This document shows, piece after piece, positions 4,061 to 37,105 of a stretch of DNA of 43,577 nucleotides (its first letter is position 1; each line of letters begins with the position of its first letter). Origin of the DNA: a virus (taxonomy: Duplodnaviria > Caudoviricetes); the IMG/VR virus record IMGVR_UViG_3300048060_000004, positions 1 through 43,577 of that record. One strand, written 5' to 3'. Position numbers and translations under genes: made by a program. Below the pieces are notes generated by a model. That model was not told the DNA's origin. It did no database searches and saw only the letters and a program-made list of their open reading frames with translations.

Positions 4061-4168
4061 ATGGGTAAAGGATGCCAACCACGCAAGGGACATAATGCTG
4101 CCAAGCAGCGCAAGAACTACGACGAAATCGACTGGTCTAAGCCGAAGGAACCTAAGAAATCTAAGTGA
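4061..4168 (+). CDS. Small basic hypothetical protein (MGKGCQPR...NYDEIDWSK)
   Basis: Purine-rich leader, GTGA overlap with terL start. Confidence 0.55.
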   Translation: MGKGCQPRKGHNAAKQRKNYDEIDWSKPKEPKKSK

Positions 4169-6786
4169 ATAGTTTCAAGCAGACCCCGCACCCCATTCTC
4201 AAGCCTATCCCGCTTGAGGAAATAAAGCGTTACGTTACGGTTAATGGTGAGATTGACGTGGATCGCGTCATGGAGATTCACCAGAAGATTCAGGAGCGCG
4301 AGGAGGTGCTGAAGCAGGCCGAGGAAGACCCGCTTAACCACGGGTTTGACCTTGAGCATTGGAAATATGCTGAGGCGATGCTGAAGCACTACGACTCTCT
4401 GATGTGTCTCGGCGGAAACCGCTGTCTCGGTGGACGTCAGCCAATACATTTGGTGGAAAAAGATCAGCTAGTGAATGTGGAGGATATTGATGGTCCATTT
4501 CAAGTTCGATCTTACGACGAGCGAACAGGTCTAGAAGTAATCCGAACTGCTTCTCATCCATTTCGTAAACCGAATCAGGATATATACCAAGTCCAGACAA
4601 GTGATGGTCAACTTCTTGAAGCGTCACTAAGCCACCGAGTCCTTGCAGATTCCCAATGGCGTTCTGTAGGCGAGTTGTCCGAGACTGTTTGGCCCGACGC
4701 TCATCTGTCCAATGAGGAGGCCGACGATTTTTCTGAGCTTCCGCTATTCGACGGCGACCATCTCCTGACCATTTTGGACATTGACCTTTTAGTGTCTGAC
4801 GAAGGTGTTCGGCGTTTGTTTGAAACAATTCAAGATTCTCAATCGCGTTGTTCTGTTTGTTACCGTCTCGGTGATGGACCACTTCATCGCGTGTTAGGTA
4901 GCGACCAAGATGCTCCTCCATCACCAAGCGATGTTCTAGAACATATGGGGTGTGCTTACGGCGATTCGGATGATCTGGTGAATAAACTTCGATATACCCG
5001 TCTTTATTTACTGTCCGACCGCCCTTCCAGTCTGGATGACCTTCGCCGCTTCTGGGACCTGTCCTCTGACATTTTATCTGATGCTTCTTGCACACCTTGT
5101 ATATCAGCTTCGCAGTTACGCGCTTATCAAGCGTTTCGCGGAGTTGATCCGCGATCCACTGTTGGGTTTTCCCGTCAGTCTCAATCCACTCGCGGATTTG
5201 ATCGACGGGGTATTCGATTTTATTATGTTTCGGCATATGATGGTGGGATTCCTATTGGTGGTTATGACGGTAAGGTAGACTACTTTTGCCCCGTTGTCAA
5301 GTCTGATTACCTCCGAAATGATGTTGTATGGGATTTCGAGGTGGAAGATACTCACACCTATTTCATTGGAAATATCGTAAATCACAACAGCGGAAAGACA
5401 GAATTCGGGGCGAGGGCAGTCGTGAAGGCCGCCATTGAGAATCCAAACTCAATCATTGTCTGCTTCGCTCAGGACGAGGATGCGTCTGTTCGTATTCAGC
5501 AGTCAGCCGTCTACCGAAACCTGCCACCAGACCTAAAGAAGAAGGCTAAGGGGGCTGTAGAGTATGTTAATTACTCAGTCAAGAATGGATTCACTGGCGC
5601 ATCGCTGATCCTGCCGAATGGATCACAGATACTTTTCCACAAATACTCGCAGTTCATCGCCAATCGAGCCAAGTTCGAGGGTCTTGAGCTAGGATCAAAG
5701 GAACCCAAGTGGATTAACATTGGCCTGTGGTTGGACGAATACCTTGAGGATGGCGACTTGGTGGAGACTATGCGCTTCCGCCTTGCTACCCGCAATGCAA
5801 AGATGGTTCTCACCTTCACGCCGATTGACGGATATACGCCATTCGTTGCGTCATACATCAAGGATGTTGAGACTACGAAGACCCGACAAGCCGAACTGCT
5901 TGACAATGAGGAGGTTCCGCTTACGCAGGTCAATGAGAAGAAGAACTGCGGGATTGTTTACTTCCACTCACAGCTTAATCCGTTTGGTGGCTATTCGCGA
6001 ATAGCGAAGGAACTAGCGCACAGCACCCGTGACGAGATTCTGACTCGCGCCTACGGAATTCCAGTGAAGTCCATGACTACGCTGTTCCCGCTATTCAATA
6101 CGAATGTTCACGTTGTCGATCATTTACCCCCTGATTTGAGAGACAAATCCAAATGGACAGTTTACCACGTTGTTGACCCCGCCTCTGCTCGCAACTATGT
6201 TTCCTTGTGGGCTGCGGTGAACGAAAGGCGCGAAGTTGTAGTTCTGCGTGAATGGCCTGACCGTGACACATACGGACCTTGGGCAGAGTTCGGTGATCCG
6301 AGGTGGAAGTTTGGTCCTGCCGCCAAGAAGCTTGGATACAATGTCAAAGGATATGTCGATTTATTCAAAGAAATTGAACATGAGCTTGGCGTTGAGGTGT
6401 TTGAGCGAATTGGAGACTCTAGGTTTTTCGCCGCTGAGAATGAGGACAATGTTGATTTATTTACGGCATTTAGCGAACATGGAATGGAATTTGTTCCATC
6501 TGATGGGCGACATGAGGATATGGGAATATCAAAATTGGATGAATATTTTCACTACAATCCGAATGTCGAGATCGACGAGATAAACAGGCCGCTAATGACC
6601 ATTTACTCAAAGTGCGGAAACAGCATATACGCACTTCAGAATTACGGGCAAAACGGCAAGAAGGATGAACCGCTGAAGGACTTCCCTGACGGGTTCCGAT
6701 ACCTAGTCATGGCAAATGGAGGTGACGGGCCAGAGCATTATTTACCAGAAATGTTTGAACAAAAACAATCGTTTGGAGGATACTAA
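4165..6786 (+). CDS. terL: Terminase large subunit containing an intein (551 aa after splicing)
   Basis: Walker A GGNR|SGKT restored by removing residues 87-408; Walker B LWLDE; LTFTP coupling motif; VVDP RNase H-like nuclease motif. Confidence 0.95.
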   Translation: MNSFKQTPHPILKPIPLEEIKRYVTVNGEIDVDRVMEIHQKIQEREEVLKQAEEDPLNHGFDLEHWKYAEAMLKHYDSLMCLGGNRCLGGRQPIHLVEKDQLVNVEDIDGPFQVRSYDERTGLEVIRTASHPFRKPNQDIYQVQTSDGQLLEASLSHRVLADSQWRSVGELSETVWPDAHLSNEEADDFSELPLFDGDHLLTILDIDLLVSDEGVRRLFETIQDSQSRCSVCYRLGDGPLHRVLGSDQDAPPSPSDVLEHMGCAYGDSDDLVNKLRYTRLYLLSDRPSSLDDLRRFWDLSSDILSDASCTPCISASQLRAYQAFRGVDPRSTVGFSRQSQSTRGFDRRGIRFYYVSAYDGGIPIGGYDGKVDYFCPVVKSDYLRNDVVWDFEVEDTHTYFIGNIVNHNSGKTEFGARAVVKAAIENPNSIIVCFAQDEDASVRIQQSAVYRNLPPDLKKKAKGAVEYVNYSVKNGFTGASLILPNGSQILFHKYSQFIANRAKFEGLELGSKEPKWINIGLWLDEYLEDGDLVETMRFRLATRNAKMVLTFTPIDGYTPFVASYIKDVETTKTRQAELLDNEEVPLTQVNEKKNCGIVYFHSQLNPFGGYSRIAKELAHSTRDEILTRAYGIPVKSMTTLFPLFNTNVHVVDHLPPDLRDKSKWTVYHVVDPASARNYVSLWAAVNERREVVVLREWPDRDTYGPWAEFGDPRWKFGPAAKKLGYNVKGYVDLFKEIEHELGVEVFERIGDSRFFAAENEDNVDLFTAFSEHGMEFVPSDGRHEDMGISKLDEYFHYNPNVEIDEINRPLMTIYSKCGNSIYALQNYGQNGKKDEPLKDFPDGFRYLVMANGGDGPEHYLPEMFEQKQSFGGY
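4334..5236 (-). CDS. HNH homing endonuclease encoded antisense within the intein
   Basis: HPDWKGG, DGYIEV, EHRLVMEEHLGRYL, VHHRDGNKQNNAIENLEL (HNH_3-like), NUMOD3-like HWTDERRAKQS. Confidence 0.9.
   Translation of the reverse strand: MPKHNKIEYPVDQIREWIETDGKTQQWIADQLRETLDKRVTAKLIYKVCKKHQIKCQRTGPRSGEGHPDWKGGRTVNKDGYIEVYSPDHPNRRKHTPYVLEHRLVMEEHLGRYLTRDEVVHHRDGNKQNNAIENLELFQTNAEHLRQTLKGQCPKWSGDGRRRIAEAQKNRRPPHWTDERRAKQSRTTRLQNAIGNLQGLGGLVTLQEVDHHLSGLGIYPDSVYEMDEKQFGLLLDLFARRKIELEMDHQYPPHSLADLFPPNVLADVHRDSGFRRDTSESRSASASPQHISNAQGQTRG
4423..5388 (+). mobile_element. Intein (322 aa) in TerL Walker A
   Basis: Starts CLGG; block B LEASLSHRVL; block F VWDFEVEDTHTYF; ends HN followed by Ser+1. Confidence 0.95.
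5272..5300 (-). promoter_or_regulatory. sigma70-type promoter for the antisense HNH gene
   Basis: Minus strand TTGACA(5300-5295)-N17-TACCTT(5277-5272), 35 nt before ATG 5236. Confidence 0.7.
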
Positions 6787-13714: not shown

Positions 13715-13978
13715 ATGGGAACACGACGAAACGATACACTAGAGCAAGGTTCCAATGGTGGACGCATCTTAAACGTTGGTGAGGGTGCATTAACTGACGT
13801 TAACTATGGCGGTCTTCTGGTTGTTGAAGCTGCCGTTTTAACATCATGGACATGTAACCTTGACAACTCCGCAGACCTAGTGGGGGTTACGCTTCCTGCT
13901 GGAATCTACATTCCTGCACAAATTAGTGCAATCAATGTAGCAAGCGGAACAATGGTAGCATACAACGACTACGAATAA
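13715..13978 (+). CDS. Small virion protein
   Basis: Beta-rich ORF in structural operon. Confidence 0.6.
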   Translation: MGTRRNDTLEQGSNGGRILNVGEGALTDVNYGGLLVVEAAVLTSWTCNLDNSADLVGVTLPAGIYIPAQISAINVASGTMVAYNDYE

Positions 13979-15591
13979 TGCCCTGCTTCGGTTTAGGACT
14001 TGGAACCCAAATACCAAGACGGGTTCTTTTTTCGGGACTTCTTGACGAGTTCCCAGGCGCAGCAGCAGCCTATAGCCCCTTGGCACTGTCAAAGGATTAT
14101 GTTTCTGACTTGCCGACTGTTTATGTTCAACGTGATAGTGATGACGCTTTTTCCAACTTCACTCAGCAGGAAATAATAAACGGTGACTTGCTCGCATGGG
14201 CGCAGGGAGGTTCGGTTTATGTTCATACATATTACGATCAGTCGGGGAGTGGTAACAATTTGACGCAAGCGACAAGATCGGCGCAGCATCGAATTGTAAA
14301 AGATGGGGTGTTAATAACACAGCAAGAAGCTGTTGCATGCTTAAATGGAGGCACGACTTACTACGACTTCGATTCTGCCGTATCACTGACTGGTGATTTC
14401 TCCATTTTTTCTGTTGTCGAATATGGCATTGGAGGAAACGGAGTATTGCTCGGGGACACTACATCCAATAACCCAAGGTTGAGGGCAGTTGATACCGCTT
14501 CAGAGTGGGAAATTTTAAACGGAACGGGAGAAGTAAATATAAGCTCAGGTTGGACAGGTGAGCGTCAACGGTTTGCGCATATACGAAACTCATCAAACGT
14601 GAATCAAGCGTATAAGTTTGGAAGCTCCATCGGGTCGAAATCACTAAGTGGAACCTTTACGTTCACTCGCGCTTTTTCAAGGAACAGCGGCATTGATTCG
14701 ATTGATGGTAAAATCCAAGCGTTGATTATTTATCCGTCAGATCAAACCGCGAACCTTGATGGCATTGATTCTGCGCTAGATAAGCTACTACAAAAGCCAA
14801 AAGAGATTTATGTGATGCTTGGTCAGTCGAATATGGTTGGCAGGGCAGTTGACGGAACTAACCTAACCAGCCGTTCCGCCGATGGGCATTTGCAGGAGCG
14901 GAGAAACTTGGGTGGGGTCAATGAGTTTTATGGCAGATTTATCGACTATTATCCATCAGGATCGGTCACTGGCTTTGGTCCCAATGTGGGCATGGCTCGA
15001 CAACTATATGTAGACGGGAATAGAAACATAAACATAATCAGATATGCTATCGGCGGAGCTAGCATTGCCTCTTTCTTGGATGAACCAAGGCGATTGCTTG
15101 ACCCACAAAACGATCTCCCTCCTGGCGATACGGATCAATGGGACTCTATGGTGTTGTATCTGAACAATGCAATTGCTACCACACTAAGGGACTCTGGTTC
15201 TCCATACACTATTAAATTTGTATGGTATCAGGGCGCTGAAGATGCGAACTACACTGGCTCCGAGGGGGGCTACACTCAAGACTTGTCTGGAATGTATGAG
15301 ACTCACCTAACTAGGCTAATTGAGGACTTAAGGGCAAATATCAATTTAGCCAGTTCGTCAACTCCGTGGGTCATTATTCGCTCCCCGGATTGGGGGGCTG
15401 GCCCAGGCAGCGCAAAGCCGGGTCAAACCGAGGTTCGCGCAGCTCAAGTTTCCGTCGCAGATGCAGACGGCAATGCTCAATGGCTAACATCAGACATTAA
15501 CCAGGGCGTGACTACTACATGGGAGGACGCCTCCCATATTGACGCAGCATCACAGGAACGACTAGGCATTGATTTAGCAGCAATAATCTAA
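13978..15591 (+). CDS. Virion-associated lectin-like plus SGNH/SASA carbohydrate esterase
   Basis: GQSNM, GG.SI, WYQG, DASH motifs; N-terminal AAAAYS...DQSGSGN lectin-like region. Confidence 0.8.
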   Translation: MPCFGLGLGTQIPRRVLFSGLLDEFPGAAAAYSPLALSKDYVSDLPTVYVQRDSDDAFSNFTQQEIINGDLLAWAQGGSVYVHTYYDQSGSGNNLTQATRSAQHRIVKDGVLITQQEAVACLNGGTTYYDFDSAVSLTGDFSIFSVVEYGIGGNGVLLGDTTSNNPRLRAVDTASEWEILNGTGEVNISSGWTGERQRFAHIRNSSNVNQAYKFGSSIGSKSLSGTFTFTRAFSRNSGIDSIDGKIQALIIYPSDQTANLDGIDSALDKLLQKPKEIYVMLGQSNMVGRAVDGTNLTSRSADGHLQERRNLGGVNEFYGRFIDYYPSGSVTGFGPNVGMARQLYVDGNRNINIIRYAIGGASIASFLDEPRRLLDPQNDLPPGDTDQWDSMVLYLNNAIATTLRDSGSPYTIKFVWYQGAEDANYTGSEGGYTQDLSGMYETHLTRLIEDLRANINLASSSTPWVIIRSPDWGAGPGSAKPGQTEVRAAQVSVADADGNAQWLTSDINQGVTTTWEDASHIDAASQERLGIDLAAII

Positions 15592-36631: not shown

Positions 36632-37105
36632 TTATTTACTTGGTTGCCACTTGTTGGCCTTGATAGCCTTGGAGAATAAATCTGTGCGCTCTTCCGAGTT
36701 CTTTGGGGCTAGGATGTCAGTTTCTCTGTCGATCATGCCGACCTCCCGTAGCCCCTCCAGAAGCTCAAGCTGCTTGTCCTTGGGGCTGTTGCGAAAACGC
36801 TTGATGTTGTCACGCGCTCCGACTGGGTGCAGAACGTCCGTATCTGATTGATCCAGGAAGTTCGCTACGGCTCTTAGCATTTCTGGCAGGGGCTTCTGCC
36901 GCACGTCCAGCGAAAGGCGCTTGTAAGCGTTCTCGATGCGCCCCACGAATGCGTTGGTCTCTCCATCTATAGCTCCTCGCACCATTCCTGTGTCGTGGTT
37001 ATGGTCTAAGGCTGGATTCGTCATTGTAACGCCGCTGATCGGGCAGTAGTCAGGCCGATGCTCGTTGCGGTAGTCTTTAACCTTGTTGGATGTAAGATAT
37101 TGCAT
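36632..37105 (-). CDS. Recombination endonuclease VII-like resolvase
   Basis: CPIS...LDHNHDTGMVRG......N...G. Confidence 0.8.
   Translation of the reverse strand: MQYLTSNKVKDYRNEHRPDYCPISGVTMTNPALDHNHDTGMVRGAIDGETNAFVGRIENAYKRLSLDVRQKPLPEMLRAVANFLDQSDTDVLHPVGARDNIKRFRNSPKDKQLELLEGLREVGMIDRETDILAPKNSEERTDLFSKAIKANKWQPSK

Follow-up and report, generated by a model that had tools for sequence, protein, structure and literature searches.

Inteins with separately encoded endonucleases

Contiguous inteins of actinobacteriophages in which a LAGLIDADG or VSR-like endonuclease is encoded on the opposite strand have been described in a preprint by Gosselin, Arsenault and Gogarten (bioRxiv 10.1101/2025.01.02.630785). 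A comparable element was found in the gene for the large terminase (TerL) of a tailed virus, IMG/VR record IMGVR_UViG_3300048060_000004, the whole 43,577-nt stretch of which is here called the window. We read it, with considerable confidence, as a contiguous class 1 intein at the TerL Walker A motif that is likely self-splicing and likely homes by means of a separate antisense HNH gene. As far as the available text of the preprint goes, the actinobacteriophage inteins share with it the contiguous intein, the separate antisense endonuclease open reading frame (ORF), the unstructured sense insert and, often, TerL as the host; signs of ongoing transfer and the same model of invasion and origin are also shared. 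The locus has the separate antisense ORF and the open host frame of the published inteins, but not their LAGLIDADG or VSR-like nuclease: its own combines a helix-turn-helix (HTH) domain with an HNH_3 core, and HNH endonucleases are listed in that text in frame only. Such inteins are described there as rare, whereas the present layout occurs in 70 of 126 related HNH cores (these being the best-scoring relatives, so that the ratio is not a prevalence). Their second ORFs typically lie outside the splicing domain, whereas here the nuclease tail overlaps block B, and here a promoter-like site lies within the intein's own DNA. An earlier note on this DNA, written from the letters alone, took the architecture to be uncharacterised. 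That was wrong: the architecture, with the same model, is already published for the LAGLIDADG and VSR-like types, and the HNH gene is a new nuclease variant of it. No antisense HNH within an intein was found in the literature searched, which covered few subscription journals and no supplements; the preprint's intein table could hold further cases.

Other described systems resemble the locus in part, as far as their available texts describe them. A cyanobacterial DnaX intein with an out-of-frame LAGLIDADG endonuclease (bioRxiv 10.64898/2026.09.14.751524) shares an overlapping ORF under purifying selection, an inflated ratio of nonsynonymous to synonymous substitution rates (dN/dS) in the host frame, a P-loop host, full, mini and empty alleles side by side, and a secondary-invasion model. 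It differs in its nuclease type, in the frame of the ORF (+2 in its own preprint, antisense according to Gosselin and colleagues), in its chromosomal gene and in its single host family. The ShiLan domain, an out-of-frame HNH in a phage methylase (PMC11855218), likewise has a concealed HNH whose shadow in the host frame is free of stops, and leaderless translation has been proposed for it; it differs in that no intein or intron was detected, the HNH is read from an alternate frame of the host transcript, and the host gene is non-essential. In the fractured genes of Dassa et al. 2009 (PMC2677866), a free-standing endonuclease lies between intein halves in phage enzymes, terminase included, but the intein is split, the three ORFs share one strand, the nucleases are GIY-YIG or Vsr-like, and there is no dual coding.

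The TerL intein

The host gene and the parts of the intein are as follows (aa, amino acids; pLDDT, predicted local distance difference test).

4165..6786, plus strand: TerL precursor, 873 aa, a single open frame through the intein; Terminase_6N (E 1.7e-5), the sole match in this virus record
4165..4422, plus strand: N-extein, ending at the first half of the Walker A motif (GGNR); aligns with intein-free alleles, e.g. L084
4423..5388, plus strand: class 1 intein, 322 aa, Cys1 to His321-Asn322 (motifs, alignment, HINT fold)
4423..4686, plus strand: N-terminal splicing region, aa 1-88, with Cys1 and block B SxxH, His71 at 4633-4635 (alignment; pLDDT 90-98 over aa 1-80)
4687..5289, plus strand: shadow-frame linker, about aa 89-289, predicted disordered (pLDDT mostly <50, no Pfam match, composition)
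5290..5388, plus strand: C-terminal splicing region, blocks F and G, with D304, H321 and N322 (alignment; pLDDT 84-97 over aa 291-323)
5389..5391, plus strand: +1 Ser of the C-extein (SGKT), the expected splicing nucleophile (sequence)

The intein comprises TerL residues C87 to N408 and splits the Walker A motif as GGNR/SGKT, as the earlier note had proposed, and motifs, alignment and the HINT fold bear this out. The class 1 residue set is complete (C1, block B H71, H321-N322 and the +1 Ser). C1 and H71 were invariant in 35 of 35 aligned inteins, C1 partly through the way the ends were chosen, and so were D304, V307, Y313 and N322, partly through motif-based selection. The two terminal residues and the +1 residue of 66 delimited inteins read HNS (39), HNT (16), KNS (6), HNC (4) or ANS (1). 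AlphaFold2 modelling revealed a confident HINT fold built from both intein ends, with aa 89-286 mostly below pLDDT 50, and the model had 24 matches in the PDB at E<=0.001, the best being the Ssp DnaB mini-intein (E 1e-6). The Pfam family Intein_splicing scored 19.5 bits, under its cut-off of 35.8 bits, and the intein call thus rests on motifs, alignment and fold; a word-indexed homologue search with the intein alone as query gave no match within the length window of that search. The insertion is exact relative to intein-free alleles: 11 of 13 related terminases that were fetched span the site, and all 11 are uninterrupted, with a clean empty site. Given the intact motifs, the essential nature of the interrupted host motif and the cultured phages carrying the family, it is likely that the intein splices itself out of TerL.

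The sense-frame centre (4699-5250) matched no Pfam family at E<=1 and is predicted to be disordered, and the linker is enriched in S, R, D and C and depleted in K, E and N; the central ~200 aa had rightly been suspected to be a shadow frame. A canonical intein with an in-frame homing endonuclease between blocks B and F was rejected for this reason, and a fractured gene or split intein because TerL is one 873-aa open frame.

The antisense HNH gene

The opposite strand of the intein carries the nuclease gene.

4334..5236, minus strand: HTH + HNH_3 endonuclease gene, 300 aa, conserved part about aa 1-245 (Pfam, alignment, model)
5081..5209, minus strand: three-helix HTH-like N-terminal domain, aa 10-52 (helices 11-20, 25-35 and 42-51; weak HTH matches)
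4823..4933, minus strand: HNH_3 core, aa 102-138 (Pfam E 9.2e-11, 41.6 bits, cut-off 24.8)
4502..4669, minus strand: C-terminal tail, about aa 190-245, antisense to intein aa 28-83 including block B (ratio of nonsynonymous to synonymous differences, pN/pS, and position rates)
4334..4423, minus strand: extension of the HNH frame by read-through into the N-extein, absent from relatives (among 66 delimited inteins, in that of the window only)

The HNH_3 match agrees with the earlier identification of a reverse-strand HNH nuclease at 5236->4334. The protein has a beta-beta-alpha-metal core with catalytic His and Asn residues; H102, R103, H122, N130, N134 and the downstream H144 are invariant in 34 of 34 aligned HNH proteins. 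Its model (pLDDT 90.6) consists of an N-terminal three-helix domain and the HNH core, HTH families are present in the Atlas clusters neighbouring the protein, and there is no CxxC zinc ribbon. I-HmuI is encoded by a group I intron and carries its HTH at the C-terminus; the protein described here carries it at the N-terminus, and an intein harbours its gene in antisense orientation. The two share the HNH_3 core, and among nucleases I-HmuI (PDB 1u3e) gave the best sequence-profile match (E 5.7e-5).

A tail resembling that of the window's HNH protein was found in phage Ymer. The final ~29 codons of the minus ORF extend beyond the intein and overlap the N-extein. Local read-through probably accounts for the 300-aa length, because this extension is confined to the window's own intein and the HNH protein of the closest relative ends at 245 aa. 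In five other loci (L042-L045 and L053) the HTH is duplicated at the N-terminus, giving inteins of 330-345 aa.

Selection on the two strands

The two frames are not codon-aligned; from the coordinates, HNH position 1 lies opposite host position 1, and the HNH wobble base opposite host position 2. In 20,000 synonymous shuffles of HNH aa 1-190, the host frame contained a mean of 6.5 stops and was stop-free in a fraction of 0.0001, so that the earlier observation of two stop-free, non-aligned strands holds beyond chance. None of 45 free-standing relatives was stop-free in the host-register frame, which held a mean of 4.4 stops per ~102 codons; the free-standing class is itself partly defined by a closed frame.

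Purifying selection on the minus frame in the intein centre had been named beforehand as a test, and it was found: over a 104-codon core, HNH-frame dN/dS was 0.07-0.39 in 15 of 17 pairs, of the remaining two one being saturated and one lacking synonymous change, and the apparent host-frame dN/dS over the same core was 0.97-5.0 in 16 of 17. Pooled over 12 pairs, the fastest codon position in the splicing blocks was host position 3 (0.56, 0.40, 0.42), and in the intein centre it was host position 2, which is the HNH wobble position (0.41, 0.44). Selection in the intein centre acts on the minus (HNH) frame. Both frames are open, each is under purifying selection in its own segment, and both proteins retain their catalytic residues.

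The nuclease tail opposite block B is apparently under selection in both frames. In six pairs with long HNH tails, the window's included, pN/pS over intein aa 38-85 was 0.62 (HNH frame) and 0.55 (host frame), compared with an antisense-frame pN/pS of 1.6-2.0 in control stretches lacking an HNH ORF. Host third-position change dropped from 0.425 to 0.167 in the tail overlap (51/120 versus 47/282 codons; Fisher p 1e-7). The simplest reading is that there is true dual coding across block B, with the HNH tail apparently co-selected with the splicing block; some other constraint on block B DNA may underlie the double conservation. The element is a natural example of an antisense overlap that spans a folded catalytic domain.

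A predicted antisense promoter

Three further features lie upstream of the HNH start.

5295..5300, minus strand: predicted -35 box TTGACA, within intein-coding DNA immediately before block F
5272..5277, minus strand: predicted -10 box TACCTT; spacing 17 nt to the -35 box and 35 nt to the HNH ATG
5245..5271, no strand assigned: 27-nt in-frame insertion relative to L001/L004, widening the gap from -10 box to ATG from 8 to 35 nt; weak AGGA 13 nt before the ATG

Among the 37 embedded lineages compared, TTGAC occurs at a fitting distance upstream of the HNH start in 21 (null mean 4.3, maximum 10 in 1000 shuffles) and a promoter score of at least 9 of 12 is reached in 26 (null mean 6.5, maximum 13), counts that are weakened as evidence by HNH starts chosen by eye and by the kinship of the lineages, and that do not amount to 37 independent tests. 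TTGAC was found at that distance in 1 of 11 free-standing HNH genes. In the embedded lineages it occurs in all three host codon phases and is thus not merely the by-product of one amino-acid motif. Two leader layouts recur, one predicted to be leaderless, in which 6-8 nt separate the -10 box from the ATG, and one with a longer leader and a Shine-Dalgarno sequence; by comparison with relatives, the layout in the window is derived from the leaderless type through the 27-nt insertion. A sigma70-like antisense promoter within the C-terminal DNA of the intein is predicted to drive the HNH gene, and the family suggests an expression route for such genes, namely a promoter inside the coding DNA of the intein itself.

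Distribution, origin and decay

Scanning gave 187 viral, 381 metagenome and 19 genome loci, and the family was compiled from the best 80 of each of the first two sets and from the whole of the third. Of the 80 viral HNH loci, 60 lie antisense within a long open frame, in a single register. The 126 distinct HNH cores comprise the 70 in a motif-bearing intein, all of which share one relative frame, 9 that lie in that register within an open frame, and 47 free-standing ones; L198 and L115, which lack the anchor motif, were excluded from the counts. L078 at first seemed embedded in another frame, and was rejected as not being an intein. The HNH frame is intact across relatives. When 36 host proteins were compared with PHROGs, the named matches were mostly TerL and also included DNA helicases, a clamp loader and SbcC, many proteins having no named match; the insertion sites are nearly all Walker A-like. 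We consider it probable, though with distinctly less assurance than for the locus itself, that these inteins form a widespread and old two-strand homing family at the nucleotide-binding motifs of unrelated P-loop ATPases, routinely misannotated, in which the same DNA serves as splicing domain, antisense promoter and, in some lineages, selected nuclease tail opposite block B, and which is testable in cultured phages. Antisense-endonuclease inteins have been regarded as rare intermediates, and the HNH family shows that the state can be stable and widespread. The layout is common to dozens of relatives; it is less surprising than first thought, but widespread and mechanistically legible.

One main origin of the embedded HNH family is likely from the quick HNH tree, which held 122 of the 126 cores (four short cores were left out). 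The earlier note had proposed that a free HNH gene invaded a mini-intein in reverse. The anatomy and mechanism of that proposal are supported by the minus-frame selection, the intact HNH genes, the apparent movement of the element and the related mini-inteins at the same insertion site (e.g. P0011, P0034), whereas its order of events is plausible only. Some short inteins retain remnants of the shadow (P0054), and relative to L122, L178 and L183 have lost the N-terminal half of HNH through a 276-nt in-frame deletion and have also lost the -35 box, with the intein ends intact. By sequence comparison, some related short inteins are clearly decay products; given the same-site mini-inteins, the remnants in P0054 and the two deletions, both ancestral and decayed states may be present among them. 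Many inteins filed as 'decayed' may conceal an intact nuclease on the opposite strand.

Several related arrangements were observed beside the family. P0062 and P0075, available as protein sequence only, are inteins that show the same shadow-frame signature, one at a Walker B-like site (DIDL/CIFDEE) in a terminase-like protein, the other in a D5-type primase. In Cylindrospermopsis phage Cr-LKS3 (L198:1366-3216), a related HNH lies on the same strand in another frame of a DNA methylase gene, with no evident intein, an arrangement like that of ShiLan. The short contig L189 carries a related HNH antisense in an open methylase-like frame in which no intein motif was seen, possibly an antisense insertion of the ShiLan kind.

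Cultured phages

Nine of 50,697 phage records match the Ymer intein along its length: seven Pectobacterium phages, Dickeya phage Setonix and Pseudoalteromonas phage PHS3; three of the nine were examined in detail. All eight Ymer-like Pectobacterium/Dickeya records carry the intein in TerL, which is labelled hypothetical or left unannotated. In Ymer and Sabo (L196/L197:1047-3311) TerL is annotated as 'hypothetical protein' and HNH is unannotated, and the main text of the paper describing these phages (PMC11445585), as available, is without the words 'intein', 'HNH' or 'endonuclease'. In PHS3 (L199:1393-3519) HNH is annotated, with a predicted promoter upstream that matches 11 of 12 positions (TTGACA and GATAAT, spaced by 17 nt), and the TerL annotation is truncated to the C-extein, the real frame being 708 codons. 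Because these phages were propagated while carrying the insert within Walker A, splicing very likely occurs in the family. The element is thus carried unrecognised by cultured phages, in which expression, splicing and homing are directly testable.

Mobility and rival explanations

The window and its closest intein, that of L004, are 69% identical over the intein and 39% over the C-extein; with L018 the relation is reversed (intein 43%, extein 68%), and the intein-free L084 has a C-extein 92% identical to that of the window. This discordance, and the near-identical empty allele, point to mobility and fit homing. Comparison of the window with L097 gave 0.77 for HNH, 0.79 for the splicing domain and 0.41 for the extein, and comparison of L042 with L139 gave 0.82, 0.87 and 0.43. 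The element of intein and HNH gene appears, from these sequences, to move between divergent terminases.

In the proposed mechanism, terL mRNA would be translated through ~200 residues of disordered shadow sequence, and the two HINT halves would fold around this linker, splice and restore GGNR-SGKT. The host sigma70 polymerase would transcribe HNH from the promoter in the C-terminal DNA of the intein, the HNH mRNA being leaderless in many relatives and bearing a short leader in the window. During co-infection, the HTH-HNH protein would nick or cut an intein-free terL near the Walker A codons, and repair of the cut terL would copy the entire element across. The family would probably go back to a single principal event in which a free HNH gene entered a small intein, in the register in which host stops depend on the HNH wobble base and would mostly be removable silently.

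A number of observations weigh against this reading. I-HmuI was the top Foldseek match of the HNH model, but weakly so (E 0.085). In the quick tree, the cluster of 77 rows (66 embedded, 9 open, 2 free-standing) is weakly supported, with an SH-aLRT value of 80, and leaves the embedded L173 and L174 outside. The -10 box of the window is weak, with 3 of 6 matches, which is why a stock promoter scan of the window did not list the antisense site. In whole-family trees, the supported splits shared and in conflict were 9 and 2 for splicing domain and HNH, 8 and 4 for splicing domain and extein, and 5 and 3 for HNH and extein, and HNH distances correlate better with the extein (0.42) than with the splicing domain (0.24). 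Against intein-free L084, the window agrees in 18/30 and 19/30 nt in two bins upstream of the site, in 27-30 further out and in 19 in the outermost bin; since two intein-free alleles also differ in those upstream bins (25/30 and 20/30), the signal of flank co-conversion is weak.

The last two points would also suit an HNH protein that is expressed from a splicing intein and cuts elsewhere than the insertion site, sheltering in the intein and spreading by marker exclusion of nearby DNA, as might the 47 free-standing HNH_3 relatives, which show such genes to be common. We regard this as unlikely: the HNH gene and the splicing domain appear to have moved together between divergent exteins, in both the window/L097 and the L042/L139 comparisons, and the empty site is clean in every readable intein-free allele. 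Decay of the window's own copy into a recent relic, intact by descent and no longer expressed or active, would be in keeping with its 27-nt insertion between -10 box and ATG, the loss of its usual stop and a dN/dS of 0.36 against the closest relative, among the highest measured. It is nonetheless quite unlikely, given that every invariant catalytic residue is kept, that dN/dS against three other relatives is 0.07-0.14, and that the two promoter boxes match those of L004 exactly.

HK97 gp74 is the comparison case for an HNH protein that acts as a terminase cofactor, and terminases are the most frequent hosts here, with the element present in all eight Ymer-like records. Domestication for DNA packaging in place of homing is nevertheless highly improbable for the present protein, as close terminases do entirely without the element, which also occurs in helicase, clamp-loader and SbcC genes; deleted derivatives persist, and the HTH + HNH_3 protein resembles I-HmuI and is without the CxxC zinc ribbon.

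Other features of the window

Among the genes of the 43.6-kb record are one for a primase-helicase and a capsid gene of SU10 type. Four tRNA genes (Ser-TGA, Ser-GCT, Met-CAT and Thr-TGT) are clustered at 2498-2827, immediately upstream of the packaging genes. Two further nuclease-like genes are present, T5orf172/MUG113 at 1328-1663 and endonuclease VII at 36632-37105, both on the minus strand. At 13978-15591 on the plus strand, amid structural genes, a 537-aa protein contains a SASA acetylesterase domain and is possibly a capsule-modifying tail protein.

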